Origin: Atractiella rhizophila
Lineage: Eukaryota
Direction of reading: 5' to 3'
Length of the DNA stretch: 49,789 bases
Assembly (NCBI GenBank): GCA_021432655.1
Contig: MU271386.1
Location: 1-49,789, forward strand
Positions 4,062 to 41,007 of the stretch are shown piece after piece. How positions within the stretch are numbered: position 1 is the first letter of the stretch; each line of letters begins with the position of its first letter. The translations under genes and the position numbers were made by a program. Under the pieces are notes generated by a model. It saw only the letters and a program-made list of their open reading frames with translations. It ran no database searches and was not told the origin of the DNA.

Positions 4062-6064
4062 ATGGAGCGAAATGTCAACTGTCTTCAGCTGGAGGATGCG
4101 AAATGCGATTGTGGAAGCAGTGTTGTGTCTTGTCAGCACCATGAAGGAGAATCGCGATTTATTTCTTGTATCGCGTCTTTGTCCTTTTCTCTGAGCTCTG
4201 TTGTGATAAATCTACGCTAGGTTTGTGATGGGAATCATCAGGAGGTAAAGAAAGATGAGCCCCAACGCCTCAATTGGCGGGAACACGGTCCGTTGCTTCA
4301 TAGAACAATGTTTGAAAGCGGCAACAGAGAACAAAGCGGCTTCGGAAGAGCGAGTCGTGGCTGTCGGAGGGAACGAAAGCGCCATTGAAAAGCCAGCCGG
4401 GATCAATAGGCTATCGACGAAAGGAGCTCGAGGTGAGAGGTGTTCTCATTCATAAAGGACTACTGATTGAATGGTAAATTCTAGCACGTACCTGGAAAAA
4501 GAACTTGTCTCACTCAGTTCTCAGAAGAGAGGATCCACCTCCAACGAGGGCCGTCACGCGGCAGACGAGACCGCTTCCACGAAGAGCGAGAAAAGTGAAG
4601 GATCCAGAGCTTTCAGTGCCGACGTGGGTGCGGTTGTTTCCACACGGAGTCAGGGTATCCACTGTCGAAGAGTGGATGTCTGCTCCAGTCAACTGTCTTC
4701 AGCTGGAGGATGCGAAATGCGATTGTGGAAGCAGTGTTGTGTCTTGTCAGCACCATGAAGGAGAGTCGCGATTTATTTCTTGTATCGCGTCTTTGTCCTT
4801 TTCTCTGAGCTCTGTTGTGATAAATCCACGCCAGGTTTGTGATGGGAATCATCAGGAGGTAAAGCAAGATGAGCCCCAACGCCTCAATTGGCGGGAACAC
4901 GGTCCGTTGCTTCATAGAACAATGTTTCAAAGCGGCAACGGAGAACAAAGCGGCTTCGGAAGAGCGAGTCGTGACTGTTGGAGGGAACGAAAGCGCGATT
5001 GAAAAGCCAGCCGGGATCAATAGGCTATCGACGAAAGGAGCTCGAGGTGAGAGGTGCTCTCATTCATAAAGGACTACTGATTGAATGGTAAGTTCTAGCA
5101 CACACCTCGAAAACGAACTTGTCTCGGTCCGTTCCTCAGAAGAGAACGAGAGCTCCGCCTCCAACGAGGGTCGTAACGCGGGAGACGAGACCGCTTCCAC
5201 GAAGAGCGAGAGAAGCGAGGAATCCAGAGCTTTCATTGCCGACGTTGGTGCGGTTGTTTCCACAGGAGTCAGGGTACTGTCGAAGAGTGGATGTCTGCTC
5301 CCGCCTTTCTCTTTCCTGAACTCGGTGCTCAATTTCCAGACATCTGCAAGGTCGACTATTACTTACAGTTGTGTTTCCTGCAAGATGGCTTCACCTTCCA
5401 AAGCTGTTACTACCCAGGATTGTCCCAAGTCTCCATGCCTCCCGTTCTGTTTTACCACTGCAATCGGGCTAGCCGTCAGGAAGGTGGAGGCGGATGTTGT
5501 CCCGCGGGCGTTTTCCTGTTGTGGCGGAAATCGACAGGCTGGAACGTCTCGCTCGTCGTCGAGGAACACAATCACTCGCCGGAATGTAAGACTCTGCCTG
5601 GCTCGCTCCCAACGCACAGAATGTCGAAGAACCAACTTGGGCTGTCGCAAGTTTTGTCCGCGATGAAGGCGTCGACTATTACGCCGGAACTGTTCTGCGA
5701 AATGGTCATGAAGAAGGTGACACATTTTGCCGTCTCCTCAATCCAGGATGTTTCTTCCCTGCAGGAGCCATGTGGATACGGAAAGGCAACTTCCGAAACT
5801 CCACAAACAGGAGACAGCCGCATCAACGACTCCGATTCTCAAGCATGTTCTGAGACGCAGGGGCCTCTATCTCCCATCAGGGTCAACCAGTCTGCAAACT
5901 CGAAAAGGAATGCTTCTCTAATTTCCAATGCATCTCGCAAATCTTCTGATATGGGAAAGGATGAGATATCGGATAATCTGAAAGCCAGGAAAGCAATAGA
6001 AGCGATGAATATGACAAGAGCGGCTCTGATTCTGTTGACCATGGGACACAAGCCACAGCACTGA
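4062..6064 (+). CDS. FAR1/WRKY-GCM1-type zinc-binding domain protein (MULE-transposase-related domain); 5' exons duplicated, gene model uncertain
   Basis: ORF 5291-6064 contains FPELGAQFPD..YYLQ..GFTF...YHCNR...CCPAGVFL...WNVSLVVEEHNH, matching the FAR1 pattern ending in HxH; no DDE transposase core seen. Confidence 0.5.
4074..5301 (+). repeat. Tandem duplication, two ~614-bp units (4074-4686, 4688-5301)
   Basis: Both units start GTCAACTGTCTTCAGCTGGAGG and end GAGTGGATGTCTGCTCC; scattered substitutions and small indels; near-identical ORFs 4255/4869. Confidence 0.95.
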
Positions 6065-12422: not shown

Positions 12423-12880
12423 GTTGGGCGAAGGAGTGTGTATTCTCTAAAGAATGTGTGTTCTACTGGGAAGGGGGAGAAGTCTCTGGTATTCTACTCA
12501 GAGACGTTGAAGAGGCACCAACGAGGGGGCAATGGTGCTGATGGTCGTTTTGAGGAGCTGCAACTGATCGGCAACTCTCTTTTAGCACATGATCAGCTCC
12601 GCCGACGGTTGAAACGAAGCAGGCGCGATCTTTGCAGAAACCGTAACTTCCATTGACTTCCATGCTGGAACACAGTGTAAATTTAGAACGCTATTTGTGT
12701 CGGTCGGTTGAAGCCCTCAAGGAGCACGAAAGGAGCTCCAAGCATCGTCGGGTTGACTCCGAACGAAGTAAGTTGGGAACGGAAGATGGATGAACAAATG
12801 CTTGCTATTTTATTACATGCCAGTTGGTTGAGCAACATCTCTTCTTTCAGCTTACAATTAGCTTTCTATTCAGGGATCAA

Positions 12881-14283
12881 TTAAATAAGCCCTTTCAACA
12901 CGTCCTCCTTCGGCCACTTGAGCTGAGGCCCGACCTGCTGAACGCACATGCCACCACATCTATGTCCCAACTCAATGCACTCGTCAACGCCCAGACCCCT
13001 AACCAAACCACCCATGAACCCAGCAGCGAAGGCGTCTCCTGCTCCGTTCGTGTCGACGATGGAATCGGAAGCGAGAGAGGTAACGGCATAAGATTTATGA
13101 GGATGAGGGTGCGAGGAGAGTTCGGGCTGAGCGACCATGGAGGGAGACGAGACGAAGGTGTTTTCAGGTCCCTGAGTGATTATGACAAGTCGCGGACGGG
13201 TGTTGTTCGCTTTAGGGAGGTGAGCAAGCTTGTTCGAGATCACACCAAGGTCTTTCGTCTTGTCATCCAACGAAGTCAGTTGGCTGTCTTCAGGATCCGG
13301 AGTAAAGAGAAAACACACGTTCCAGCCAGCCGCTGCGGCGTAATGCTCAGCTTCAGTCTCGTTCCCAATAAGAATGTCGACGTAGGGCATAATTTCGTCA
13401 ACTTGGGATTTGAAAAATTGGGGAATGAAAGGGGCGGAAAGATTCATTGCGAACATCTAAGATCCAAAGCCACCATCAGAAGTCCGATTCCAGCAAGGAG
13501 ACCCGTAAAACGTACCTGACTACTTTCCGCTGTTCGCTTAGCGACTAGCTTCGCGCTCTCTAAACCGTGAGTAAGGAAGTATCCCTCCATGTAGAAATAC
13601 TTGGCGCCATCAAGGAGAGCCTTGATTTCGGGCTTCTCGAAGTGCGAAGGTTTGAAGCTCTCTGCTGCTCCCAGACGCGTAACAAGCGACCTTGCGGAGC
13701 AACGGCCAACTCTCAGTCCCCTCTTTACTCAGAGATGAGGAAACATACCGATGATGACCCGTGATAATGACGGCACAAGCTCCCGTGGGCGCGTCTTCAG
13801 CGAACATATAGGCGCTCTTCAGACCTTCACGCTTGTTTGCCTCCTCAAGCTTCGACGCGAATTCATCCTTCCCAACACAGCCGATAAAGGCAGTCGATCC
13901 TTCAGGCAGAACATACTGAGAGTTTTCAATCAGCCTTTCTTAATAGAGAATGGTAATCGAAGACATACCTGCGCCATTCGGCAGGCGTTCTGAGCTGCTC
14001 CGCCTGCTACATAGGCGGTCTCGTACTCCTTCTCGATGTGATCATAACTGCAGAGCAGCAACGTCAGAGTGACCGCGAACGGCGGGAGTAAGGCATCCTA
14101 CATCGAAGCCTGCTTCTCATCTACAAGTATGGCATCGTTGGCCTTTAGGTTATACTTCTCGAGGACTGCTTCTCCGTTTCTGACCTGAATGTCTACCGCT
14201 TCCCGATCAGCACGCTTCGCATATTACGGCGCAGACGCACCAAGGAGAGGGTTGCCAAGGCCAACGAGAGCTGGAGAGGACAT
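12881..14283 (-). CDS. ADO1: Adenosine kinase (PfkB family), multi-exon
   Basis: MSSPALVGLGNPLL-DIQV..LEKYNLKANDAIL, AGGAAQN, APTGACAVIITGHHR, NLSAPFIPQFF, GNETEA, DTNGAGDAFAAGF. Confidence 0.95.
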
Positions 14284-14823
14284 TCTAGAGCGATCCAAAT
14301 CGTAAAATTAAGAGATCCCAGAACGAGTGGTCGAATTTTTGTCTCCAAATCGATCGTGAGTTCTGGTTCGGAGCCGTAAGGAACGAGATTTAACTTCGGA
14401 GTATTAATGCTGGATTAATGTTCAAAAGAAAATGCATTTAAGAACCGAAGGAACAATAGATGGCGTTCTGTGGATTCTCTCCTCGCGATTGGGATTGCAC
14501 GACACTTTATGTACTATGTCATAGCGTAAATACTAGAACGAAGGTGAACCAACACTTGATTTAGTTGGTTTGAGCTAAAATGAGCTACCGCAGAAGAATC
14601 GAGAATCCAAGGTATGGATTTTTACGATTTAAGCGTCAGAATGAAGCTGCAGGGCCACGCTCACTGCAAAGCCACCATGGTAACTCAATTCCCCAGTTGA
14701 AACTAAAACATTCCGTTTAATCATTGACAACATATACAAAGAAGGCTACATGGTTATCTAAAATACTGAACGTACAGAAGCTCACCACCTCTGCAACACA
14801 CGAAAGTGAACTCAAGTAACACA

Positions 14824-17185
14824 CTAGCAGTCCTCTTCAGCAAGCATCTCCATGACGGCGAGATAAAACGATATTCTATCCCAGAGTTGGTCACCAAACC
14901 GTCTGCAGCATAGTGGAACGACGAACGGTTTGTAACCAGTCTTTTTTCCCGTCCATTCTGCTAACGCATATTTCACCCTATCCACCCATCCGATCAAATC
15001 CAGGTGATTTACGCCATGCAGTGTCCCTTTGTAAGATCCCCACTTGGCAGACTCGACAGACACAAGACCGTCATTTGGGCCTTCCTGCTCATATACCTAA
15101 ATTCTCGATTAGCTACACCCCAAATGTGCCCAACTAAAGATTACAATGCCCCATGGAATCCGGAAGGGACTGCTCCAACCTGCTGTGAATTCGGCTCCAT
15201 AGGAATAGTACTTCACGCCTGGCATATCCGGCGTCTCGACGTTGAACCGAGCCATTCGAGAAGTGGTCAGAGCCTCGAAAGCCGCACCGCCGCCCTCACC
15301 ACCGAATGTCTTCATTACGATATAAAGGTCTGGAAAGAAGAGGGTTTAGGTGGTGCAGGAACCTGACCACCATCGATAGCCTCATTGCTTGTAAGATCCA
15401 CCGTTATAGGTCTTCCCCTTTCTCTTTCCGCGAAGTCATTTCTTACTCTTCTCGGAATCGCGAGTTGTCAACTTCTTTGAACGCGTTACCTCCTGGTTTC
15501 GCTTCCCATTTTCTCTTCCTGTAACTACTATTTGGTTGGTAGGGGTTATTTGCACCTCTCGCCCACAGGGTATGAAGGTAGCGACGGAGAACGTAGGGTG
15601 GTTAGGAGAGTTAGAAGGAGGAGAGTGAGAGCTAGGCCTGGTGGATGGGAAAGTAGGAGAGCCAGCGCACCCTGCTACCTTAGCCTCGACAGGGAACGGG
15701 TTCCGCTTCTGTTGCGATCAAGTACCCAGATGTCGCACCTCTCTCGATGTGGATGGGTCGGATGTTATGTAAGACGACTTCACGCTTCTTCGCGTTCGTG
15801 CTTCTCAGCGCGGAGATATCTGACCTTGACCTTCGGTGGCTTAGAGAGACAAGGGTGGAGACTCGCTCACCTTCGGAGGGAAGTTACGCGGCTGTGACGG
15901 TCGCTACTTAACCCTTCAAGGTTTCCAGCTGTAAAGGATAGAGTTGTGGTGCTACTTATTGGAGTTAAAGTACTGTGAATAACGTCCCTTCGTTTGCAGT
16001 GGCCGACTCCTTCGTGTCCTACATTGTCATTTCCTCCTTCCTAGCCTTCTCCTCCTCGCTGGGCAGTGAGCCGCCTCCTCTTGTAGAAGCTTAGGTGAAG
16101 GAAAGTGTGGAAGTCTTCGGTACCTCGCTCCTATAAACCTCCGTCTACTCTACCTACTTGTCGACCTCCACCTAGGGCTGAAACTCAAGGTCGCTCATGC
16201 TGTGTTGAGTAACTTTTCTTGAAGTTGTCGCGGTGAAGGGGTGCACCTCGCAGGGTTTAGTCGAGGAGAGAGCAGGGGGGTAAAGAAGGACAGGATGGGG
16301 GTAGAAGTAGGCGCCGTTTCTTTCGTGAACGCTTATGGGTTGTCTTTGGACCTAAAAAACGGTTGAAAAAGAGATGATCAAGCTTATCACCACCTCACTT
16401 TCTCTCGTGTTTCTTCCCATACTACCTCCTACTTCTACAGCTCTCCCTCGCTTCTGATAATCTTCTTGTCCTATTTGAAATACCCTGAAACTTCCTCTAA
16501 ATATTCTGTGGATTTCTAGGACACCAGAAGCGAGTACCAGATAAACCAAAACTAGTAGAACCAGGGCGACCTTAAGGGCCGAACGTCCAGAGTATGACCT
16601 CTCCGTATCCTCTTCGCAACCTCCTCTCTCCTACGCTCCAGAACTAACGGTTTCAGGGTTGGAGAGTGTCACGCAGTCAAGAACGATCCCATAGTGAAGT
16701 TAGCTGCACACTGATCCGTAACTCTGCGCGCGGTTTCGGGACACGCTCTACTAGCTTGTCTTTAAAGGTCCAGCTCTCCACTTATAGCATCCCGTGAGCT
16801 ACCAGACACTAGACAGCGAGGCATAGGTTCGAAGCAGATTGAAGCCTAAATCCCACCTGAACTAAGGGCAATGGAGTAGTGCGTAGAAGCTGGTTGATTC
16901 AAATTTCAGTTCAGCGACACGTGGTAGCGATCAGGGGTGGCGCCCTCGTGTAAACGACTGATAAAGTAACTCCTTTACTAACCGGCACGCAGACAGGAAA
17001 CATAGTATGAAGCTGACAATGACTCTTGACACCGAAGTGTCCTCTATTGTAACCGAGAAAGGAGAGGCAANNNNNGGTGGTGGAGTGGGCAGAGATGATG
17101 TGGATGCGAAAGATGTCGTCCGTGTGGAAATGGTGGCTTTGGGTCGTGGTCCTTTGGTACTACTTGAATGTGTTGACGATGACAT
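14824..17185 (-). CDS. TGL2-like alpha/beta-hydrolase triacylglycerol lipase; middle 1755 bp string-reversed in this assembly
   Basis: Normal minus strand gives the C-terminus (GPNDGLVSVESAKWG, VNHLDLIGW) and probable N-terminus (MSSSTHSS.., 17185). The complement of 15316-17070 read left-to-right gives PVVFAHGLFGFD, SYWRGI, VNIVGHSM|GGLDSRY, SPHRGS and ends ..FLSV, joining in frame to MKTFGG at 15315. Confidence 0.9.
15316..17070. other. String-reversed (mirror, non-complemented) segment adjacent to a 5-N gap; probable assembly artefact
   Basis: Only the non-biological reading (complement, left-to-right) yields lipase motifs and GT-AG introns; exact in-frame junction after un-reversing. Confidence 0.95.
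17071..17075. other. Assembly gap (5 N)
   Basis: N run. Confidence 1.
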
Positions 17186-18001
17186 AATGCTAATTCTAGT
17201 GAAAGACTTGTCAGTATAGACCCCGTTCGACGTTCAAAGGAGAAAGGTTGGCACGAGGGTCAGCATTCGATGCAAGTTGCCTCTGTTGAACAAATTACAC
17301 GTTTTGACGAAGAATCTTGTACAAGCATAGATGATACATAAGGACGTGCACCACGCAAGATGCAAACCAGATCAAATTCGGGGACATGGCGAGAATAAGT
17401 CCTCCAGCTCAGGATATCATAACGAATGACTCTGATGGCAACTCATGGGACATCGTCATCCAACACTTCCCAATACCCGGTATGTGGGGTTACGCACGGT
17501 GTGTTCTTTGTATATCTATGAAAATTGTGGCGCGTTCTCATCTCCTTCAACTTGACTCCCACCTAGACCCTGAACTGTAGCTGCGTCTCTATTCTGCTAT
17601 TCCTTGCAACTGCTCTGCAATGACAAAAGTTGAAAAAAGTGTAAATGATCGAGCTGATGTCAACTTTGCCATCGAAGGAGAAAGATACTGTAAGTTGAAG
17701 CCGTCGATGACGCAAATAGCACCCAGTGGCTGCTGCGGAATAACAAAGGCAGCTCTCAATCACTAAACCAGCATTGTGGGCCTCCAAAAAAACCGCAGCA
17801 ACCCAATGACAGCTCGGGATCAAATCGGCACTGAACAAGATACATCGCGCTGTGGACTTGGCCTAACATGATCTCGCTTCATTACTGACTAGAGTGCCGC
17901 GAACAAATGTGAGCTTCGCGCTACAAAATAGCATTGCTGCAGAAATCATACATCTTTCATACATCAAACCTGAACATTATTTATTGAAGATAAGAAATCA
18001 T

Positions 18002-19312
18002 TTAATCACTATCGGAACTGGAAGAACTAGTAACTTCTTCGCCCCTCTTCGACCTTTCTTCCCTTTGTCTCCTCCTTTCCTCTCGCTGGCTTCTCCTAAA
18101 CCTCTTTTCTGCTCTCCTGGCCTCTCTCTCCTGCCTTCTCGCTTCCCTCTCAGCATCTCGCACATGATGATGATGGTCATGCCTGTGTCCATGCGCATGA
18201 GAACGACCGAAACTGCCAGGCCCATGATCCGCTCGACCGCCATTTGTAAAATTGAAGCTATGTCGCCTATGAGGGAAGTTATCCTGGGGAGAAGCGAAGA
18301 ATCCTGGCATATGCGGCATCCCTGGCATAGGCGGCATGGGTGGCATGGGTGGCATGGGTGGTGTAGGTGGCATAGGAGGGGAAAATGCAGGGAATGCCCT
18401 CGGTGCGCGATGACGGTGAGTGGAATTTTCGAAACCATTCGTCGAGAAGTGCGGGAACGGGGGGAAGGGTGGGAAGGGTGGTGGAGCGGGATGAGAATGC
18501 CTCTCTCCTCTCCTTCCCCTCCTTCCTTCTCTGCGATGTGATCTAGCTTGAGGGAGCGGCGCATCTTCCGGATCACCGATGTCGACGTTGACCTGCATGT
18601 TCGGATGTTTGGCACCCACGATGTTGTCCACGAAATCCGCCCAACCGAACCTATCGAGATACCCTTCCACGGTAGAAGCCATCTCCTCCTTCCCGCCTTT
18701 CAGACCGATGTTCTCTCCAACCTGCTTGAACGCTGGGTTGCCAAGAACCTCCTCCAAGATACTCCTCAAAGCCTTCCTTCCGCCATTGTTACTTCCACTA
18801 GGCGTCGCCGTTCCATCACGAGAGTGGACGGAAGGAGAAGATGGTGCGCGAGATTTCCCCTTATCTTCTCTTGTGGAAGCAGGAGTAACAGAGTCGTCAT
18901 CCATGACCCAATCTCCCATCACAGATGCGGGAAGCGAAGCAGGCGGCGCGATAGGGAGGAGAGCGAAGAACGGCTCCAGTCGCGATGTCTGTGAAGACGA
19001 CGACGTTAAACTTAGCTGGCTTCGGGAAAGGTACGAGGTCGTTGAGTTCCTGAGTCGACGAGCTGTTATTATAGAAGTGATTGTCAATATCGTCTTTCGC
19101 CACATACGAGGAAATAACGGTGGAGGGGAGTACGCACATCGTGATTTCGTCTCCATCCTCATCGACGTAGCTCAGCCCGATCTTCTTCGTGTCTTCGATC
19201 CCAAACCTCTCCTTGACCGCATTCTCGATCGCCTCCCACTTCATGCCTCCTTCAGTGGGAACCACCACTTTCCTAACAATTTCTCCTAGTGTGAGCTTAA
19301 AACTTGAGACAT
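18002..19312 (-). CDS. PB1-domain protein with Pro/Met-rich repeats and His/Arg-rich tail
   Basis: FKLTLGEIVRKV...LSYVDEDGDEITI|SSTQELNDL (OPCA motif of PB1); PPMPPTPPMPPMPPMP; nearest ATG (19312) is one base out of frame. Confidence 0.75.
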
Positions 19313-20686
19313 CTTGGTGCTGATCGTTCGTTTTGCTCGTTCGAGTGGCAAGACCAAGACGTCAAAGCAACCCTTATAAAGGCAGGAGAATGGGAGCAAG
19401 AGTCATGCCTGCGGTGACTGCGTGCCAGCTGCGGAGTGACTTGGTGGCGGGAGCTCTGAAATCTGGAAAAATCCCTGGAAATCACTGCATATGCAAGACA
19501 GTGCCTCTCGAAGAGGCAGACCACGTCAGGGTATCAGGGTACTGAACGTGACTGAACAGGCAGCTTGCGACTCGACTGCTACGCATGAGGCAGCGGTGAA
19601 AAGATGAAGTACCTTCCCGAGAAAGTGAAATAGTGGATGATGTCCATCATTGTGGTTCAGAGCACAGTAATGTCATGGCCGTCATGGGCAGGATAGAAAC
19701 GATCAGTTGCACAAACTGGAAAGCATCAAACCCAAAGAAGGCGGAACCACGAGAGGTAGCAGTCCTCAATGGCGAGATGAAGCAGTCTTACCATTCGCGG
19801 ACGCTGCTGAGGTGGCCATGCGAATCTCGCGAGGCTCACAAAGTTCAGGTTTCCTATCCATCAAGAAAGACCAGACGAGCAGCAAGGACTCCCAACTAAG
19901 TTCATCTTTGAGCATCTTGAGATTAGACGTTGGCACTCTCAAAGCAGTCAGACATTGTAGGTCAGAAGTAAATGGCCTCAGAACTCTCGATTCGTCGCTC
20001 CAAAGCTTTGGAGGCACGCCTAAGGGGGCTCGTTTCAATTAGTGCATATTGATGGACGGAGCTGCATTTTGCTTTCGCTTCGTGGATATCGCAGAAACTA
20101 TTCATATTAAAAATATTGACGTTCACAGAATTGAGGTGATGGCAAACATTACAACAGCATTTAAGCAGAAGCAGAAAACAGATACAAACGTTATAGCAGC
20201 CTTTTCTTCCTTTCTGCCTTTTTCAATTGCATCTAGGATATAGAAGCAAAGGAAAGAGACCTTATAGGAACCGCTCAATTCAAGGCTCGACTTTACCCTG
20301 CAATGGCGCAAAGCAAGACAAGAACATACCTTTTTTAGCTCTATTCCGCTAACATTGGTGCCGCCTCACATCTATGTCTTTACCTTTACTCTGCCATATG
20401 CTCGATGAAAACACCTAGCTGTGTTATCTAATACCTAGTATCGGACAGGTCTCATCACACTCAAGGAGAGTTCTGTTGTCTGTTGCTTCTGTGGTTCCTG
20501 TTCTGCTACACCATTCCGCCACACCAGCCCAAACCCCTCAGCCAAATCTGTCCCCCCAAAAGATTACAACAACGAATGTGTGAACGTTGTGCAAAGCTCA
20601 CTGTAAGTCTCGAAATACCGTATTGCTGTGTCATTGTTTTGATCGCTTCTTGGGACATGCAGCACATTAAGGAATCTTTGCAGACC

Positions 20687-22147
20687 ATGTCCATAAATGA
20701 AGACCACTTTCTTTTCGGCTCTCTTCCTCCTGAACTCCAAGAAGAGATAATCATCCAGACTGCGATGCTCAAAGAAGATTGCAAGGGGACACTACGATCC
20801 CTGAGTCTTTGCGACCGTCGAACCAGAGATCTGTCAATCCGACATCTTTTTGCCGATATTTATCTTTCGAATGAAAAGGCAGGCGATTATCCCCTCGATG
20901 GCGCTTCGCCGCCACAACCTGTTCTGTTGCCGAGCAGCTGTCTCTCGATCCAGCACTTCTATAATGTGAAAACGATCCATATCATTTTGGATGAACCACT
21001 TTGTTTTCAAGAGGCGAAGTTGCGCCTGGAGGCGGGCTGGCGACTCCCTGAGTTTGAACCTTTCGACACTCACATGCATCAATTTCTCTACTTGCGATCT
21101 TGCTTGAGAGAATTGATTACGGCTTGTCCACGTTTGGAGGCGATCGACACCTGTTTCATGGCTGATGTTGATTTAGATCTCGAATTTTCAGAGCCCTACC
21201 ATCGTCTCGTGTGTCATGGTCTGTTTCACATCTTCTATCAGCTCAAACTTTTAAGTAACACGATATATCTCGGATTTCACATCGAACTTGGGGGCTCTCT
21301 GTACTTTGAACAGAATGCGCATCTCCGAATCCACGAGATTCTCGACTATCTAACAATCGAAGACAAAATCAAAGGGATCGGGTATTTTTCTTACAGGATA
21401 TCAGGAGTCACATGGGATTCCATAACATCTCGACCAGCAGTCGAATATCTTGTTATGGCCTGCCTTCCTGCCCGCATTGATCGGCCTGTTTTAGCTCCAA
21501 TTCGTCGATTGGTCATCGATGCCTATGCATCTGATGTTCCCCTGAATGGGGGATACGGATTCAACTGGTGGTATGCCCTTTACTTCCTTCGTGCCTGTGC
21601 TCCTACGCTTCAGGATGTGTACATGCGCGAGTGTATTCTGTTTGGCGAAGAAGAGCAGTCTTTACCTCCTCCTCCACAATATCCTGGTCTTAAACGGTTT
21701 TACTTTTCGAACATCATCCATACTTGCTATCGTGAGGTAGAGATGCGGCAGAGACGCCAAAATAACTTGATGCGCCAATTACAAGCCGTCCTGCACGAGT
21801 TTGGTACTTGTCCTGTCGAAACCCTTGGATTTTCAGTGAACTATTCGCAACTAGCATTGATTCAGTTGCCCGAGTCAGAAGCACCCACCGAACTCTCAGA
21901 CTCTCTGGTGGCTCAATTTGGAGGTTTGAATATGCCTGAAGTCACACACATTTGTGAGCGCGATGTTGCCTGCATTGTGCATTTTATTACGAAACAAAAG
22001 AGAAAAGGGATGCTAGCTCAACTACGGCATGTTGAATTTGGAGAGTCAATTTTTTCTGCATTAAGGGGATCCCCAACGGCTACAAATTACAAGCTAGAGC
22101 TAGAGAAGATAGGTGTTGACTGGAGATGTCGAACTGAAAACTGGTGA
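20687..22147 (+). CDS. F-box-like protein (cassette 1), single coding exon
   Basis: N-terminal FLFGSLPPELQEEIII..LRSLSLCDRRTRDLSIRHLF F-box pattern; long uninterrupted ORF; probable 5'UTR intron 20603-20683 (GTAAGT..TTTGCAG) just before ATG. Confidence 0.8.
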   Translation: MSINEDHFLFGSLPPELQEEIIIQTAMLKEDCKGTLRSLSLCDRRTRDLSIRHLFADIYLSNEKAGDYPLDGASPPQPVLLPSSCLSIQHFYNVKTIHIILDEPLCFQEAKLRLEAGWRLPEFEPFDTHMHQFLYLRSCLRELITACPRLEAIDTCFMADVDLDLEFSEPYHRLVCHGLFHIFYQLKLLSNTIYLGFHIELGGSLYFEQNAHLRIHEILDYLTIEDKIKGIGYFSYRISGVTWDSITSRPAVEYLVMACLPARIDRPVLAPIRRLVIDAYASDVPLNGGYGFNWWYALYFLRACAPTLQDVYMRECILFGEEEQSLPPPPQYPGLKRFYFSNIIHTCYREVEMRQRRQNNLMRQLQAVLHEFGTCPVETLGFSVNYSQLALIQLPESEAPTELSDSLVAQFGGLNMPEVTHICERDVACIVHFITKQKRKGMLAQLRHVEFGESIFSALRGSPTATNYKLELEKIGVDWRCRTENW

Positions 22148-22223
22148 GATGGTGTTTCATGGCCAAAAGTACATATTGGAGGTCGGGAGGACTTTCAATC
22201 TTATTAATATTATTGGTGTAGAG

Positions 22224-22906: not shown

Positions 22907-23143
22907 GATGTCACTATTTGATAGTAGGTAATGTTACGGTGTATATGGGTGATGTGGTGGAGGTTCAGTGCTTGGAGGAGGGGATTTGAGGAATTGTTGC
23001 GGCTTTTATCTGCGGCCAGGAACGCAGTCATAGCTGGAGAACCATCTGCTCAATAACTAGGAGAATGTGAGGCAACTCACGAACGCATAGGCAATAGGAA
23101 AGTGTTGACATCTTCCAATAGAAACGGTGAGCAATCGATTGAC

Positions 23144-23490
23144 AATGACTTGTTGTTCGACATCACGACAGGCGGGAAAGAAAAGGCGCGACGCTTCTCT
23201 CAACAAACTCAACGTCTCCAACGGAACCTTGCGCAAGTTTTTGGCTATTCAAACAGAAGGATGTCGCGAGGTGCGGACAGAAAGGAGCAGAGTCTCTCTC
23301 GTTCGTCAATGGAGATGTATTGTTATTTCAAATAGAAGAGGCGAGACCGACATGCCCAATGTAAGTGTATTGAATACTGATTGAGTTGAAATGACTTGCA
23401 CTCCGAACTCGGAAGCGAAAACGGGAGAAGATGTTTCCTGAAGGCACATGACATCATGCGTTGCCCAACTGCTATAGTAGCTTGGAATTA
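23144..23490. promoter_or_regulatory. Conserved non-coding element upstream of small gene 1 (partial extra copy ~23680-23760)
   Basis: Aligns with 36022-36430: AATGACTTGTT..CGACATCACGA.AGGCGGGAAAGAAAAGGCGCGA, TTGTTATTTCAAATAGAA, GAAATGACTTGCACTC..TCGGAAGCGA..CGGGAGAA. Confidence 0.65.
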
Positions 23491-26872: not shown

Positions 26873-27161
26873 TGTGAGAGAGAGACATACCACATGACTC
26901 CATCTTACTTCATCATCTTACTTCCCTTCGCTCATTTCTCTAGCTTCATTCATGTTCCTTCCCTTCGCTCGTTCCTTTCGCTTCGTTTCACTCTCCCTCT
27001 TTTGTTATCCACTCGTCGGCACGTGTACATAGGGTTAGGGCCACCACCAACCTGATTCCCCAGCGTTTCCACCATCTCATTTCGCTGGGGATCAGGTATG
27101 TAGCTTCATTTCATGCCATAGAGCGTTTCCACCATCTCATTTCGCTGGGGATCAGCTCACA
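26873..27161 (+). repeat. 5' LTR (289 bp)
   Basis: Differs from 33282-33573 by 4 substitutions and one 3-bp indel by manual comparison. Confidence 0.95.
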
Positions 27162-27175
27162 TGGTAGCAAGAGCC
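27162..27175 (+). promoter_or_regulatory. Primer-binding site (initiator-Met tRNA type)
   Basis: TGGTAGCAAGAGCC immediately after the LTR-terminal CA. Confidence 0.8.
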
Positions 27176-27273
27176 ATATAGTAGCTATAAAATACCTACG
27201 CGTGTCTAGTTTTGGGTTTAACGCCGCCCATCACGAATTTTTGTAACAACAAATCTGACCTTGTCAACATCAT

Positions 27274-30200
27274 ATGTCTCGATACCTCACACCTTCTGAC
27301 GATAGAGACCCACCGCCACATATCCCTTCTCGACCTCTATCTCCAACGCCATCGCATACTACCGAACCTTTAATTAAAGCCTCCCCTCCGATTTCTTTCC
27401 GTAGCGCCGACATGGAGCTATCTTCTACCTCCCCGGGGTTAATCATCGATGGAGTACCATCTATCATACACGTGGGATTCAAGAGCTGGTGGGAGGCGAT
27501 GAAGTTGGGCTTGCAAGTGAGAATGGTTTACCGTTATGCTCTGGATGTCACTTCTGAAGGGGAGTTCCGTCGGTCGAAACCGGTTCGTAATGATTTTCAA
27601 CATCAGTCGCAATGGGAGGATGCTATGGAGAAATGGGAAGCTGGAAATGCGAGAGCGGTGGCCATACTCCTCGCCAATCTCGATGTGATGGCGGTCAATC
27701 AACTTGATGAACAGGACCGCCGAGTCGCCAGTGCGATTGTTGCGAAGATGCGTACTCTTTTCAGCACCACGCAAGCAGTCATGGGTCACACTATTTTTGC
27801 GCGATTAGTCAGTTTTCATCAAGGAGGATCTGGATCTGGATCAATGGCGCAATTCATAACCGACTGGAATGAGATTTACGCTGAATTGATCTCTGCTGAT
27901 GCGTCTTATGCACTTTCCGATGCGGTCAAGTTCCTCATTTTTGTCAATCTCCTTGAACCGGAATGGAGAAAATTTGCTTTGAACCCGAAGAATGTAACCC
28001 GAAACGATATCACCGACCTAATTCGAAAAATTGAAGGCAGAAGACATGACGAACACCGTCATCGAAAATGGGGACACAGGGATGAACCCGCGTTATCAAC
28101 GGGAGACGAGTGTTTACGCCGTATCAACTTCACACTCCCGATCCGTACCCCTGCCTCCATCGTCCCAGCCTCCGATGGGATCCTACACTCCTATGCCTCG
28201 ATGGTCTCCTTCTCCCTCACGAACGTCCCAAACGACTGATTCCTCGCCGCGATATCGTTCAAACCCCCCTTACCGTACAGCCTTGTCGAATTCCCCTGCA
28301 CCTCGTGCCACCACGCCTCTTTTTCAATCTTCTACCCCTAAGACCACTCAACGTCAATATCAGCATTGGTCAGTCCGCCCCCCTACACTGCAACAGCTCG
28401 GGAAGGGGTACCGTTTTACACGACAAGTTTATAGCAGGCCTGGCACAAGAGTTTTTGGCAGACGGGCATGGGACTATGACGGGCTGGAACTATGGCCAGG
28501 TTCAATAGCGCCTTCGGGACATTTCGTTGTACACCCAAACCAATGCGTCTACTGTCTTGGGATGGGGCATATATCTTCCGGTTGCCACGTCCCTACTGGT
28601 CAACGGGATACTGCCCGCGATGCTGCTTTCGCATCCATGGGTATCACTCTTCGTCCAAGTCCTCCAGGACGACCAAATTATGTCCATCCATCTGTACTCA
28701 TTGCCAGCCCTGTTTTCTCGACGAGCGATGAGCTAAACGACACCGGTATCCCACGCAGCGGAAACGATGTATTTAGCCCTGGCCCAGACGGTCGATTCGA
28801 CGGAAATTTGGATGGCAAGTTGATTTATTCTGGTGACTTAGCATACTGGCCTTCCTACGTTCAAGCGGCTTACGAACAACGTCGTTGGCCTGTACCTCAA
28901 CCTGCGCACGACCCTGAGCTCAAGATCCACCCACTTTTCATCCCTCAATACACATACAACAACCCACTTCCTCCCTCCGAATCACATTTTCATACCCACG
29001 TTCAATATGCTCCTGACGGTGACATGGCCTTTGAAGATGCGCTACAGGAGATCTCAGACTCAGAGTACCTGGCTTGCATGGAAGAATACGAAGTGACCTC
29101 GAAGAAGCCCCCTCCCTCGCCAAACCAATCTTCCCTCCTTGTTTCACCTCATGCTTTTATTTCCTCGATCCAAAATGAAAAATTTTCTTTTTCTGTTCCT
29201 AACGATGCTCCAAATGCTTTGTCCTTTTCTTCTTGGATTCAAAATTGTTTACCATTTGCTTTATCTCGTTATCTTAACTTCGACTTACCTCCACCTTTGT
29301 TTCGTCTTTTGGAATCCCCTGCTTCTATCGCCGAACGGTTCTTACCCGTCGACTACGTGGCGAACGTTGCTGCTCTCCACTCCTCCACATTTTCCGACCT
29401 CAATTCGAAAACTCGCTCGTTCCCTTTTCAAGCTACGATGCCGCTATACCTCCTACAACTTTCCGCTTCCTTGCGCGTGAACACCCAGATATCCCTTCCA
29501 TATCTGTGGATTGCTACGTCGACTCGGCTGCGACAGTTCACATGTCAGGCTCCACCGAACTGTTCGATGACCTCCAACCGATATTACCTCCTGTCTTCGT
29601 TGGTGGCGCGTTTGGGAGTGGCGGATTTGCGACCCATATGGGCAGAGTTCGACCACTCCTCGAGGATCAAAGCGGGCTCTCAATTTCCCAAGCGAATCTT
29701 GGCACTGGTCTCTACGTCCCTGGACTCGGTGTCACCCTGGTATCTCATTTCGACCTCATGCGCCGTGGGGTCCGATTTACCAACAACCGCGAACACCTCT
29801 TCTTTCGTCGTGAAGATGGTAGACACTTTGGTATGGCAAAGTTCGGCCAGTCGCAGATAGAACTTCAGGCGAGATCCCCCTCCCTACCTATCCAAATGGC
29901 AAACATAGCTCACTCAAGCCCGTCTGCTCTTGCAGTTACGAATTCCAAAACATGGCATTCACGTTTAGGTCACATTGGTGCCAAACGATGGTGGGAGCTA
30001 TGTAGCTATGTACGGGAGGTTGGGTTACAGGATTCGATTGCAATCAAACTGCGTTTGAATCCTGCACTATCTGCGCGGCTGGGAAATCAAAAGCACGTCC
30101 GAATCGAAGGACCACAACAACATCTTCGTCCACGAAAGGTGAACGGATTGATTGTGACTTGTGGGGTCCCGCGCCAGTATCTGCATTGCAGAGTGGCTAC

Positions 30201-33025
30201 CGTTATGGACTCGGAATCGTAGAAGAGTCCACTGCCATGATATGGTGGATTCCCCTACGACTCAAGTCAGATGCCGCCATGGCCTTGAGAATGTGGATCA
30301 CAGAGACGGAACGTCATCACGGTATTAAGGTGAAGATCCTGCGAAGCGATAACGGCGGGGAGTTCAAGTCAGTCATTTTCAAATCTTTTATACAAAAATC
30401 AGGTATCACTCACGAGACTTCAATTCCATACGTTCACAACCAAATGGGATTTATGGAGCGACGTTGGTATACAATGTTCGATGTAGCTCGCACAATTCTC
30501 TTGGAGTCAGGTTTGCCTTTATCTTTCTGGGAAAAAGCAGTTCAGTTTGCCGTTCACACTTTAAATCATCTACCCACTTTTTCGCACGGGTCTTGGAAGT
30601 GTCCTTTGAAATTATGGACAGGCACAGCGCCTGATGTTTCTTCTCTTCGTACTTTTGGCTGCTTAGCTATTATTCACATTCCAAAGGAGAGGCAGATATC
30701 GAAACTCCATCCGAGAGGGGCACGAGGATACTTCGTAGGATATCTGCCTGGGGCAAAGGGTTGGCTCTTTTGGGTACCGTCGCAAAGGCGATTTGTGGAA
30801 GCGAAGGATGTCAGATGGTTCGAAGATCAGTTTTATCGGGATCGGAGTGCGGAGGATACGGAACGCCTAAGTGACTGGACTCTCGACGAATTCATGCCCT
30901 CTGAGTTTCATAGCTTGGCTGACGATGTTCCCGTTAACATTCCAGGTCCCGATGAAGTAGTGCCGCCCACCACATCAGATAACCCTTCCGTACAACGCCC
31001 CCCTCCTGAACCCCCACGACGTCCTCAGCTCCCCCAGATATTTACATTCGGAGGGAGTTAGATGATGTTGAGGGGGGGGTTGCCGAGTCCTACCGCGAGC
31101 GAAGAAGCTGTGCAGGCACAAATGGTCCGTGCTAGACAGGTACGCAAGCGTATACCACAACACTCACCTGCCCCATATCCAACCCCAAGCCAACGTCCAC
31201 GACGTGATATATCGCGAATCGATTATACTGCCCAGCTGAAGGGTAGGCCATCAAACCAAGAAGGGAGGACCCATAAACATTCCAATTACTTTCTTGATGC
31301 ACACTTCCGATCCACTGACCAAGGTTTTATTCCCTCGCTAGCAAGCAGGAAGATGGCGTCATCCGTACGCTCATCTTTACAATCATCGATCTCAGGTGAA
31401 GGCGAGGACGTAAGACGCTGGCAGGTATTTGCGGCTAATGTGAAATGGACAGGTAGTCTAGACGAACCGTCTTTTAAACAAGCACTCTCTGGACCTGACG
31501 CCGAAAAATGGTGGGAGGCGATCTTGGCGGAGATAGTGGCGTTAAGAAGTATGGGAACATGGGATGAGAAGCCTATTCCACTGCCCTCTGGCAAGAAAGC
31601 AGTGGGTTGCAAATGGGTATTGCTGATAAAAAGGGATCTAGATGGAAGCATCATCAAGTACAAGGCACGACTAGTTGCTCGGGGTGACACACAGACTGAG
31701 GGAGTAGATTTCGAAGACACCTTCGCTCCTACCGTGCGTATAGTGTCTATTCGCGCTATTCTTTCTCTCGCGGCGTCCAGACGCATGAAGCTAGGGCAAT
31801 TTGACGTCAGCAATGCGTTCTTGAATGGAATACTGGGTGAGGAAGTATATCTTCGTCAGCCTCAAGGTTTTGTCGACCCGCAACGGCCTGCTCATGTTTA
31901 CAGGTTGCGAAAGACCTTATATGGCCTACGGCAGGCAGGCAAGGGATGGAACGATACCGCCCACGCGTTCTTTATCGACCAGGGATTTACAAGTTTGGAT
32001 GCAGACCATGGGTTATATTTTAAAAATGATGGAGAGGGACTGACTATTGTAGCTATCCATGTTGATGACGGTCTTATCGCGGCATCCACTCACACACTCA
32101 TCGAGAAGCTGTATACTGCGCTTCGCTCGCGATTCAAAATAACGACATCGCCAGTTGGGAATTTCCTGGGCATGAACATAACATGGGATGAAGAGAGAAG
32201 TATTATTACCTTGGACCAGGAAGCTTATGTGCGCAGATGCATTGAAAAGTATGGGTTGCAGGATATGAAACCGACTAAGACGCCATGCGACATTGACGAT
32301 CGGGTGACAGAGTCTTGGGCTGCCCAGACTGATGGTGAGAGGGAGTATATGAAAAGGATTCCTTACAGGGAAGCTGTGGGAGCACTGATCTATGCCGCAG
32401 TAAACACCCGACCAGACATTGCATTTGCTGTGAACAGGGCAGCATGATACAACGCCAATCCTGGACGTCGCCACTGGACAATGGTTCAAAGAATATTCAG
32501 ATACCTTTTAGGTACACTGGATTTCAAACTCATTTGGGACGCAACGGGTAGCACAACCCTTGAAGGTTTTCTGACTCTGACCATGCTGCTGACTTGGACA
32601 CTAGACGCTCGATATCTGGTGTTGTGTTTCGCTTGGGACGCTCAGCAATATCATGGATATCCAAGATGCAACCGACAGTCGCGATATCCTCAACTGAGGC
32701 CGAGTACATCGCACTCTCGACGGTGGAAAGGGAGGCGATGTGGCTACGGGCACTGTTATCACAGCTTGGTTTTCCTCAACAGAATGCGACACTAATCAGG
32801 GGAGACAACCAGGGATCCCTACTTCTGGCAAAACATCCTTCTAACCATGGTAGGACGAAGCATGTCGATGTACACTACCACTTTACAAGAGAAAAGGTAA
32901 CGTCTGGGGAGATCGTACTCGAGTGGATCCCTACGCAAGATATGGTAGCGGATGTGATGACGAAGGGCCTGGGATATTTACAGCACTCTAAATTGTGTTC
33001 CGCTATGGGGCTGTTATCAAGTTAG
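27274..33025 (+). pseudogene. Copia gag-pol polyprotein, broken by several frameshifts and stops
   Basis: Gag; CCHC knuckle CVYCLGMGHISSGC; protease YVDSAATVHM; WHSRLGH; integrase WGPAP..LRSDNGGEF; RT YKARLVARG, QFDVSNAFL, YGLRQA, IHVDD; RNase H STEAEY, DNQG, TKHVDVHYHF, ADVMTK. Confidence 0.95.
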
Positions 33026-33268
33026 ATGAGTGATTGCAGTGTTCAACTTTGATTTCCAATCCATTCTTGGATCCATGGGATTCTGCTTCTTCCAGTTTCT
33101 AGGCTATTAAACATTTCATTCCAACTTTTACTCATTTCTATTACTCATCTCAAGTAAGCTAGGACAATCCTGATATCACGTTTGCATGTTTGACCACATA
33201 AATTTATTCTCATCCTTTTACATTCCTTTTTTTTCCACTGCTGCTCATTTTGTATGCCTTCGTGCCTT

Positions 33269-33281
33269 GAGTGAGGGGGGG
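33269..33281 (+). promoter_or_regulatory. Polypurine tract
   Basis: GAGTGAGGGGGGG directly before the 3' LTR. Confidence 0.85.
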
Positions 33282-33573
33282 TGAGAGAGAGAGACATACC
33301 ACATGACTCCATCTTACTTCATCGTCTTACTTCCCTTCGCTCATTTCTCTAGCTTCGTTCATGTTCCTTCCCTTCGCTCGTTCCTTTCGCTTCGTTTCAC
33401 TCTCCCTCTTTTGTTATCCACCACTCGTCGGCACGTGTACATAGGGTTAGGGCCACCACCAACCTGATTCCCCAGCGTTTCCACCATCTCATTTCGCTGG
33501 GGATCAGGTATGTAGCTTCATTTCATGCCATAGAGCATTTCCACCATCTCATTTCGCTGGGGATCAGCTCACA
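33282..33573 (+). repeat. 3' LTR (292 bp)
   Basis: TG..CA, followed by TSD GTTCA. Confidence 0.95.
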
Positions 33574-35220
33574 GTTCACATCAATCTGGAGGAGGACATC
33601 TGTTTCGACGAGGCTTCAAAATATTCTATTTGGAACGATTCTCTATCGACCCCTGAATGCCGGACTGTTTTAATTCAATTCGTGAATCTAGTACGGTGCT
33701 TTCGAGATGTAACCACCTACTGCCGTTCTCTCAAGGAGGTGTTCATTCATCTCAAGTTTAAGGAAGGGATTGATTCATATTGGACAGCTTCTACCAACTA
33801 CTGCGGGCTGCAAAGCGTGGATTGAGTTCCCTTGTGGACCAAACCAAGTTTTGCGTCAATAGAATCCTACTTGGCCTTCGTGTCCACTTCGATGAATCAG
33901 ATTTTGTTTGGATAGAGTCACATATGAGAATCGAAGATGCACTCATTTGCATGTCCCAGCCAGACAGGATTGCCTGCATCGAATTTCATTCAGGCTTCAT
34001 ACCAGACTTTGTTTTACAATCGCTCTTATCATTGCCAGCGGTTGAGTAACTTTCGTTAGGTACTTGCAGTTTCCAGGACCTCATGTCGCCGTCGCAAACC
34101 ACTTCGACATCTAACTATTGATGCTCGAGCGTCCGACCGGTGTTGCAGCGATTATCTGGGGGAGTGGGAGTGCGCTTTCGATCTCGTCAGGACTTTTGCT
34201 GCCACCTTGGAGACTGTACACATACGCCACTACCTTGGACTTCGCGCAGGACTACACCTCGCCGAGTCACCTTTCCAATATCCCAATCTAAGACAGTTCC
34301 ACACATGCTTCATCCAACCTGAGCGTCCTCGACAAGATGAATGGTCTCCGACTCTTAGGAATACATACTTGATCAGTTGAAGCTCGTAGTAGGCGAGCTT
34401 TATCAAAGCTCTTGGGAGGTTTTTGGGTTTTCGGAAAGTTATTTGCCTGATGCACCGCCTTGGGCAGAGGTTGGCATTCTACCTATCGGTTCTGAGGAGA
34501 ATGTGCGGGATTTCCAATCGCCAGTTGCCTCGAACCGTTCTGAAATTACTCTGGCTTTTGTTGCTTACTTCATGGCGAAGAGAGGAAGGAAGGTAACCTC
34601 ATGAATCTCAAAAGAGTGGATTTTGGACAGTCTACTTTCGATTGCTTGACCAGAATAACGCACGCAAGGAGTCATGGCGAATTGGCAAAACTAGGAATTG
34701 TGACTAGGAGGAGGTGTCGTGAGGAATAGCTTGTCCAGACTTAAATATTATTACAATAACCGTGTATCAAATTTCAGGCTCATAGTAGGTACAGGACAAT
34801 GGACATTCTATTGAAAACTGATTTGTGATCACTGAGAAAAGAATGAAAGAAGTAGTATAAGGACAAGAATGATAGTGAGGGAGATCCGTGTTTCGCGCAA
34901 CTACTAGTACAGTAGAGACTGAAAATGGGAGAATATCCACGGCCACGGAACAAAACTAATTGTACAGAAGTAGGCACTGATTGGAAATGACAGCGATGAG
35001 CAGAGAAGTCAGGCAAAAGTGCCAAGTTGGCGCGCATCGAGACGAAGAGGGTACGAAACATAACAACTGATCAACGGGTTTGCACATCAACATGGATCAC
35101 TATCTGGCATACATCCTGCACCCGGGGATCATTAACATCAATCTTGTATAGGCACAAATGATAAAGAACGCACGGAAACATTGCTACAGCCCAAGATATA
35201 GTGTCAACATCGTCTGCAAT

Positions 35221-35766
35221 TTAAAAGTTGTTCCAAGAGTAACGTCTAGGAGGAGGGAAGTGTGGATAAAAGTTGTAGCCAGAAGGGTAAGCAAAAGGAT
35301 CACGAGGAGGGGGGTTGGATGGAAAGATCGGATTTATGAAGCTGTTGCCGCCAGTGAAATCCTCATTGTAGGTGGCCCTTGGGTATTGAAAGTTGTCCAA
35401 TGGGGAAGGACCCAAGTCTAGCATGATTATCCTTTCCTCCTCCTCTCGGCGAGCCCTCTCTGCCTCCCGGGAACGTCTCTCTCGCTCTTCTTGCATTTCC
35501 CTCCTCCTCTGCCGCTCCTCTTCCCGTCTCCTCCGCGCCTCTTGTCGTCTCATCGGCTCCTCCAGTTCCCTCCTCCTTCTCTCCTCCTCATCTCGTTGCT
35601 CAATTCGCTGACGCTCTTCCGCTTCCCACCTCAACATTTCCTGTTGTCGAGCAGCTCGAGCGAGCCGAATCTCTCTCGCTGCCTCTGCGGCTCGGAAATG
35701 TGGACATGGCGGCACATCTACGCCCCGTTGCGAACAATCATTACATATCTTCCTGTGAGCCTCCAT
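35221..35766 (-). CDS. Small protein (181 aa): N-terminal C-x2-C-x9-C-x-H motif, E/R-rich charged helix, P/F/Y/N-rich tail (cassette 2, allele A)
   Basis: Intronless ORF MEAHRKICNDCSQRGVDVPPCPHF...; frame is preserved in the diverged second copy. Confidence 0.8.
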   Translation of the reverse strand: MEAHRKICNDCSQRGVDVPPCPHFRAAEAAREIRLARAARQQEMLRWEAEERQRIEQRDEEERRRRELEEPMRRQEARRRREEERQRRREMQEERERRSREAERARREEEERIIMLDLGPSPLDNFQYPRATYNEDFTGGNSFINPIFPSNPPPRDPFAYPSGYNFYPHFPPPRRYSWNNF

Positions 35767-36021
35767 GTCTGATTGGTCAATGGAGAATTGTGAAGATAGA
35801 GAGGCGAGGAGGGGAGGATAAATGTCATTTTATATCTGCTGGTTGGCAGCATCCCTTTACAAAAGGGTGACTTTGTTAGATCGTTTGCGAGAAGGCCATA
35901 TCTGGTTCGCAAACGCAAAACAGCAAAGGTAAAGTATCATCTGCGTCATCAGCACATGGACGCAGTCTAAGTGCGTTTCCACTGGACCATCCTAGAAGTG
36001 GAAGAGAGTGTAATCAACAGA

Positions 36022-36430
36022 AATGACTTGTTCTCGACATCACGAGAGGCGGGAAAGAAAAGGCGCGAAGCCACTTTCAACCAAATCAATGTCTCAAGTC
36101 GCTCAATCTAATCAGTAACCTTGCCAAGTCTTTCACTATTGCAAACAGATGGACGTCACGAGCGGCGGGAAAGAAAAGGGCCGGAGTCTCGCTCCAGCAA
36201 ACGAACGTACGTCAATGTCTGAAGTCTTTCAATTGAAATGACCTTGGAAGAAGTCATTGTTATTTCAAATAGAATGAACGAGAATGACGTGGTCAATTGC
36301 AAGAAAAATTAATTTATTGAAGTGAAATGACTTGCACTCTCAAGTCGGAAGCGATAGCGGGAGAAAAAGAGTTTTAGCAGAGCGACACATGGCATAATGG
36401 ACTGCTCAATTGCTCATAAGACTTGGAGGC
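36022..36430. promoter_or_regulatory. Conserved non-coding element upstream of small gene 2 (also in copy B from ~41264)
   Basis: Homologous to 23144-23490; GGCGGGAAAGAAAAGG at 36048 and 36164; AATGACTTG at 36022 and 36326. Confidence 0.65.
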
Positions 36431-37307
36431 GATGAAAGGTGGTGCTTTGTGTGTCGGAACTTCAACTGCCCTGAAAGAGTACAAAGAGTCGTGACAAGGA
36501 ATTTCGAGAACAAATGCTAACCAGACCAAGCTGTGGAGATAACAAATGTAACACAGAAGATGCCAAATTGCGTTTGCATATACAATTAGGACAAATTTCC
36601 TTTCAGTTTCAAGAGTGTTCGAGTATTCTCTCCTCGTGACAATTGGAAGTGTAGAACAGCGTATTAAATTGTTTCCGAAAGGGAAATAGAAAATATGACG
36701 CTTTCCTCATTCATGGCATAAAGCGATGGGATGCACAACGAACAATTTTGATAGTCGAGGAAGATGTCAATGAATATAAATGAACAGCTAACGAATTCTG
36801 CCATTCATCCTTCCTGCAATCCGTAAACCCTTTATCCACCTTTCTATGTCTCATGGTTTTCCCTAGTCATATCTAATCCCATGTCAAAGGTTAATAGAGC
36901 TGGTTTGGGCATCTTCCAGTTCAAGGGTCTCTTTGTGGGATTCGGCGAAAAGGGAGATTGTTGGGTGAGATTCAATAGTTGCGTCGGATAAATTGATGCT
37001 GGGAATGAAAGGCATCGGCAATCAGTTACAACAATGGTCGACCACACAAAGGCAGACACAAGGGAAGAGATTGTGAGTGACGAAAGGAGTCACCCTCACA
37101 CTACCCCGCTAGTTCGATATCAACTGGACAAACACTCCGCGAACTTTCTGCCTCCTGAGTCGTTTCCCTATTTTACGAGCTCATAGCACTCTTCCAGCTA
37201 TAGACTTAGGAGATATAGGCACCCCATAACATATATACCGCATTTCAGGCCAAAAATCACGAACGACACGAACCGCGGGACGATCCATTGTGAAAGGGGG
37301 ATGAACG

Positions 37308-37886
37308 ATGCCAGCGCGTCCTTCTTCCGCTCTCGGACACTCTCCTTCCCTCTCACAGTCCGCAATCAATGGTATTTCGGCGGTAGAGAAGGACGGGAAA
37401 GATGTGCAACTCAAGGATTATCAGATTGGAGAGGTGGTGGGAAAAGGAGGTATGTATTTCTTTGTCCTAGAAGCAAAACGTGCTTTGGGATGGTGCGCCG
37501 CTTACTATGATTGCTCGAAAGGCATGCATATGCTCAAAGCACATTTGTGCTTCTGCACAATGCATGAGCACCTGGCAGCATAACGGACTCATGCTGTTAC
37601 TGCGAACTACATGTGCCACGGTAGATTTCTATAAAGAAGGACAGTTGGGACTCTACCATGTCTGCACATGCGAGAAACAATGCAAAAAGAGCGACTCGTT
37701 GCAATGCAATTATGTTTGTACAAGTAGCTCTAGGGGTGCGCGTTGCTAGTTGTTCCTATAAGGTCATCAGATGCTCCATTCCGATTTGTCCAGCTTGCAC
37801 ACAGCGCGCTTCCCTTTGCAGAAATCCACAGAGGATGAGGTGCATTCCGTACAACTCGCACGAAAGACATCATTCCATGTTATGCT
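37308..37886 (+). other. Redundant copy of kinase exon 1 and most of intron 1, truncated by the gap
   Basis: Same [17 protein letters not shown] exon as 42510; ends at N run. Confidence 0.9.
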
Positions 37887-37911
37887 NNNNNNNNNNNNNN
37901 NNNNNNNNNNN
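37887..37911. other. Assembly gap (25 N)
   Basis: N run. Confidence 1.
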
Positions 37912-40900: not shown

Positions 40901-40994
40901 CTTTTTGGTTCGACACTATTGTCACGGGCATCGGTGTAGCGGAGGGAAAGGTGGCAGCTCTCACGCTACATGAGCCGGGAGTCAACTCCTATAG
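37912..40994. other. String-reversed (mirror, non-complemented) copy of 32683-35753: RNase H end, 3' LTR, F-box 3' part, small gene
   Basis: e.g. CCATACAGAGAGAGAGAGTGGGGGGGAGTGAGTTCCGTGC (~40373-40412) is the letter-reverse of 33261-33300; un-reversing joins seamlessly to 40995. Confidence 0.97.
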
Positions 40995-41007
40995 TGTTAG
41001 CCTGCAT
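37912..41007 (-). CDS. Allele B of the cassette-2 small protein (182 aa), split by the reversal: 41007-40995 (normal minus strand) plus complement of 37912-38447
   Basis: Reconstructs an intact 549-nt ORF MQANKKICYDCSQRGVTEAPCPHLVRAAEAERE...YPHYPPPRRYSWNNF*. Confidence 0.8.

Follow-up and report, generated by a model that had tools for sequence, protein, structure and literature searches.

A lipase gene of Atractiella rhizophila partly hidden in a reversed, uncomplemented block beside an assembly gap

The window, the whole 49,789-nt stretch of Atractiella rhizophila DNA that was analysed (contig MU271386.1), contained a 1755-bp block (block 1) in which the order of the plus-strand bases was reversed without complementation. 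Reversing block 1 in place restored a minus-strand gene for a Tgl2-like lipase, confirming the original observation. A second block of this type (block 2) was found at the other gap of the window. We are highly confident that the displayed blocks are an assembly artefact, most likely from gap extension in the wrong order, that hides part of an ordinary, intact lipase gene. The features are listed below in window coordinates, with residues numbered as in the full-length public protein P0004.

15316-17070, no strand: mirrored block 1 (1755 bp), plus-strand order reversed, uncomplemented
15316-16422, no strand: upstream part of block 1, in which the complement has three overlapping open frames (15511-15960, 15821-16399 and 16186-16716)
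16423-16669, no strand: lipase exon, residues 1-83 (MEDED... PVVFAHGLFGFD ...PTSH), spliced alignment without mismatch
16670-16716, no strand: intron, 47 nt, GT..AG (left-to-right reading of the complement)
16717-16802, no strand: exon ending in GHSM, with the nucleophile Ser110
16803-16852, no strand: intron, 50 nt, GT..AG, preceding G112, with a branch-like motif 16 nt from the intron end
16853-16985, no strand: exon GGLDSRY...SPHRGS...EMIG
16986-17041, no strand: intron, 56 nt, GT..AG
17042-17070, no strand: opening segment of the exon that the junction interrupts (residues 157-165, ...DNIGSFLSV), continuing at 15315
14821-15315, minus strand: C-terminal half as given, residues 166-312, with an intron at 15144-15097, Asp231 and His253; equivalent to the truncated public model P0001
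17071-17075, no strand: gap of 5 Ns adjoining mirrored block 1
37887-37911, no strand: gap of 25 Ns adjoining mirrored block 2
37912-40994, no strand: mirrored block 2 (3083 bp), corresponding when reversed to 32683-35753 and joining 40995 flush

The initial annotation had seen no meaningful open reading frame in block 1, and our comparisons agreed. As given, the six frames had 13 stop-to-stop stretches of at least 60 aa overlapping the block (range, 67-138 aa), and the longest internal one, the one of the 13 scanned against Pfam, had no match. None of 122 lipase homologs (all the fetched proteins except P0001) matched the block as given. Once it was reversed, all 122 matched, with a median best E-value of 8e-34. 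The lipase gene could be read left to right along the complement, and its translation had the series PVVFAHGLFGFD, GHSM, GG..., SPHRGS and ...DNIGSFLSV that had been read there originally.

Two other operations on block 1 were rejected. Reverse complementation in place, equivalent to an ordinary inversion, restored no homolog match within the block, as the initial annotation had anticipated in arguing that ordinary inversion could not explain it. Complementation in place, with the gene on the plus strand, recovered the exons, which were then disconnected from the half at 15315 and opposed to it. A single continuous minus-strand lipase gene was obtained only by in-place reversal.

In spliced alignment, mirrored block 1 and the as-given half together matched P0004 at 311 of its 312 positions. 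The four introns (47, 50, 56 and 48 nt) are all GT-AG, and the 50-nt intron was exactly where it had first been placed. The single mismatch (G291 versus D) was in the as-given half, outside block 1. The join between 17070 and 15315 was base-exact: on the minus strand, FLSV (ending at 17070) ran on in frame to MKTF at 15315 without gain or loss of a base, as in P0004 and as in the original reading. All of the 121 relatives aligned through this junction in one HSP.

The mirrored exons had no differences from residues 1-165 of P0004, implying no decay. This counts against real mirror DNA, in which kilobase segments would have been reversed without complementation through parallel copying, leaving a dead lipase allele. 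We found no positive support for such DNA, and both blocks (2 of 2) were at assembly gaps. DNA and RNA polymerases copy antiparallel; to our knowledge, no polymerase copies in parallel orientation, and no process reverses kilobases without complementing them. We regard real mirror DNA as extremely improbable.

The two blocks also differed from the rest of the window in their oligonucleotide statistics. In a Markov scan whose model was trained on the remaining window, the as-given direction scored better nearly everywhere; the exceptions were two runs of tiles, at about 15300-17000 and about 37800-40900, and a single order-4 tile at 22201 that fell just below zero (-0.8). With a model trained on the window without either mirrored block, the log-likelihood ratio (as given versus reversed) was -23.2 per kb for block 1 and -26.7 per kb for block 2, against +24.2 +/- 5.0 per kb for 24 held-out 1755-bp control tiles (minimum, +16.8; none negative). 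Reversed statistics were found in blocks 1 and 2 only (z about -9 and -10) and in 0 of 24 control tiles. The TA/AT ratio was 1.65 in block 1 as given, 0.61 when it was reversed, and 0.66 in the remaining window. Because the Markov ratio was negative in block 1 and in none of the held-out tiles, and because the TA/AT ratio flipped, a chance origin of the signal in block 1 is excluded. Low-complexity sequence at 49589-49775 matched its own mirror image weakly (72%); the Markov test did not class it as a reversed block.

The window has two runs of N, at 17071-17075 (5 Ns) and 37887-37911 (25 Ns). A mirrored block was present at both, including the 5-N gap that had been noted beside block 1, and no other tile was mirrored. 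Block 2 is an internal control that is independent of outside data. When the reversed window was compared with the window itself, one long match was detected, from 37913-40994 to 32683-35752 (97.1% over 3092 columns). Reversed block 2 (3083 bp) and 32683-35753 (3071 bp) shared 3002 matching bases, and the reversed block was flush on 40995 precisely where the template goes from 35753 to 35754. The shared sequence takes in the terminal part of a copia element together with its LTR, as well as most of an Arg/Glu-rich frame (202 aa) that had no Pfam match; the LTR within block 2 also matched 26873-27161. The 25-N gap is flanked by copies, 35754-37886 and 40995-43088, that are 92% identical. Since each copy has what looks like exon 1 of the kinase gene at 43361 (Pkinase), they are probably two alleles assembled in tandem, the right-hand contig having been extended leftwards by 3 kb.

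The copia element itself, of the Ty1/copia type, spans 26873-33573. It has integrase and RVT_2 domains, is interrupted by several stops or frame breaks, and is bounded by LTRs (292 bp) that are 97.6% identical. Within each LTR, a 34-bp sequence is directly repeated at a spacing of 60 bp (27062/27122 and 33474/33534). A diverged repeat (67%) of 290-350 bp occurs in three copies (23141-23429, 36022-36365 and 41261-41607) near F-box-like or other open frames (20432-22147 and 33451-34380). At the left of the window, 4074-4686 and 4688-5301 form a head-to-tail 613-bp duplicate with 93% identity and no N between; it may be a natural tandem duplication or a further join of collapsed alleles.

After correction, both blocks (2 of 2) had one side flush on an anchor contig and Ns on the opposite side. 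This is the geometry of one-sided gap extension in the wrong order. One block extends its contig rightwards and the other leftwards. In the mechanism we propose, the chromosome would carry an ordinary intact Tgl2/LipA-like lipase gene, and a gap-filling program would have extended a contig end into the gap and written the added bases out in the wrong order. These might have been reversed without complementing, or the opposite strand might have been complemented without reversing; the two would give an identical string. Such a block would be flush with the anchor contig on one side and border the remaining Ns on the other, and the end that truly belongs next to the contig would lie beside the Ns. 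Block 2 would be a product of the same gap-filling step at the other gap. The software error at the gap, as first suggested, is supported by the base-exact in-place reversal, the second mirrored block at the other gap and the intact same-species copy P0004.

The blocks most likely originated in gap extension, probably from long reads. Block 2 had 15 single-base indels in 3.1 kb (13 of them insertions); an as-given control pair had 12 in 2.1 kb, matching the excess, so the indel pattern does not demonstrate a long-read origin. The same string would also result if small contigs in minus orientation had been complemented but left unreversed during scaffolding or file handling, and the blocks (1755 and 3083 bp) are contig-sized. 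This explanation is counted within the artefact verdict, differing only by the processing step. However, both blocks after reversal abut their neighbour with neither overlap nor gap, and only one side of each is bordered by Ns, whereas separately assembled contigs normally overlap or have N spacers. Joins with zero overlap and zero gap would fit a trimmed extension better than a mis-oriented contig, and we consider the scaffolding step an unlikely source.

According to the available parts of two reports, long-read gap fillers extend flanks into unclosable gaps and can overfill them, and PBJelly defines a gap as at least 25 Ns (PMC3504050, PMC9635638). Block 2, which adjoins exactly 25 Ns and continues a region present in duplicate on either side of the gap, resembles the overfilled gaps of PBJelly, where unclosed flank extension duplicates sequence (PMC3504050, PMC9635638). 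In contrast, block 1 adjoins 5 Ns, and reversal without complementation is absent from those descriptions as far as these parts go. No published account of a reversed-but-uncomplemented assembly fault was found in a search of mostly open-access literature, judged by titles and the openings of abstracts. In the parts available, PMC5689209 contained no reversal fault and PMC1449890 concerned other matters. No assembly method was found among the papers listed for Atractiella rhizophila. Words from 12500-19500 were shared by 20 of the 22 public sequencing runs listed. The best two DNA runs contained 0.55 and 0.54 of the sampled words, with a ceiling of 0.74 if the block were absent; these shares are compatible with absence of the block and about 1% divergence or with its presence and about 2%.

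For the restored protein, the catalytic triad is S110, D231 and H253. The initial annotation had assigned the catalytic half of the lipase to block 1. This was correct for the HG motif and the nucleophile Ser110, which are inside the block, but not for Asp231 (in NDGLV) and His253 (in NHLD), which are in the as-given half; the triad straddles the junction. With Ser inside block 1 and Asp and His outside, neither half could be expected to function alone.

The product is predicted to be a Tgl2/LipA-like alpha/beta-hydrolase lipase. Its (G/A)xSxG nucleophile motif is GHSMG at 108-112, interrupted by the intron at 16803-16852, and G[HYF]S.GG was present in 111 of 121 relatives. D231 and H253 follow the Ser and align with lipase motifs of PDB chains; the Asp and His motifs were found in 119 and 111 of the 121 relatives, respectively. 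P0004 scored above the curated cut-offs of PGAP1, Abhydrolase_1, Palm_thioest, DUF676 and DUF915. The putative affinity to Tgl2 is drawn from the 'lipase 2' source labels on relatives, the motifs and the triad spacing. In the available part of PMC11889585, the triad of the yeast mitochondrial lipase Tgl2 is S144, D259 and H281, so that the two proteins are alike in the (G/A)xSxG motif and in triad spacing (S110-D231-H253 versus S144-D259-H281).

The closest Pucciniomycotina relatives were 58-59% identical to the restored lipase. Basidiomycete 'lipase 2' proteins such as P0003 show the same family likeness but have long low-complexity N-termini. Among bacterial family I lipases (PDB 1ex9, 1hqd and 7cof), phmmer E-values ranged from 2e-19 to 5e-17, and GHSxGG, SPHRGS/TPHRGS, NDGLVS and NHLD were aligned with P0004 (19 PDB sequences). 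1EX9 was the model used for Tgl2, according to the part of PMC11889585 available. These bacterial enzymes are distant homologs, whereas the restored gene is eukaryotic and has introns. A metagenome scan with P0004 gave 134 pattern matches, none of which was confirmed as a relative.

The falsely truncated annotation that had been predicted is already in the public record. When the as-given exon from 15315 was used as a query, 3 proteins were found among 37 candidates. The best, P0001 (128 aa, 100% identical), is labelled 'alpha/beta-hydrolase, partial [Atractiella rhizophila]'. Because this 'partial' model starts exactly at the Met at 15315, the public annotation is already truncated by block 1. 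It has nothing from the block, the nucleophile included, and no Pfam match; the two as-given lipase exon stretches alone likewise had no Pfam match. The start of P0001 also bears on whether the reversal arose after deposition, in handling of the window, with the public assembly being correct. The model begins exactly at 15315 without block content, as if its annotators saw the same broken sequence, and we consider a later origin very unlikely.

P0004, the second member of the P0001 cluster, is KAH8916416.1 (312 aa, 'alpha/beta-hydrolase [Atractiella rhizophila]'). It is encoded on a different contig of 35,472 bp, which is shorter than the window and must therefore be other DNA. P0004 is probably the other allele of the restored lipase. 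At 14827-14960 on the minus strand, P0004 reads through FVVPLCC...WDR, a stretch that P0001 splices out and the relatives lack; this full-length public model probably has a retained intron there.

The three open frames at 15316-16422 probably encode a low-complexity N-terminal extension, like that of relatives of 600-800 aa. The two frame switches within this region may be introns or fill errors; for them, 2 and 4 candidate introns were available. No convincing homolog of the extension was found (best E-value, 0.005). Two short frames were also seen near the gap. One, at 17078-17185 on the minus strand, is Ser/Thr/Pro-rich and runs into the 5-N gap; the other, in the first 210 bases of mirrored block 1, has 69 codons, including a hydrophobic stretch, and is Lys-rich at its end. 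These frames may belong to a small gene that the gap divides, or may mark where the lipase really starts; a frame across the gap was incompatible with 5 bases.

Six-frame translation, BLAST and gene finders all miss block 1; hence the 128-aa public model without nucleophile or Pfam match. The mirrored blocks make up 9.7% of the window. Because about a tenth of it is affected, claims of gene loss, pseudogenes or 'novel sequence' near gaps of this assembly should first be checked for mirrored sequence. It is possible, if doubtful, that a gap-filling step in wide use has an undocumented, systematic bug and that mirrored blocks of kilobase size stand at gap edges in many public drafts. If it were true, genes would have been silently deleted or truncated, and a k-mer test of as-given versus reversed sequence would detect this. 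If other assemblies from the same pipeline share the fault, it would deserve a brief technical report as well as correction in the databases. The biology is almost certainly ordinary: the lipase is conserved and intact in Atractiella rhizophila, and its mirrored form is not a real biological feature.
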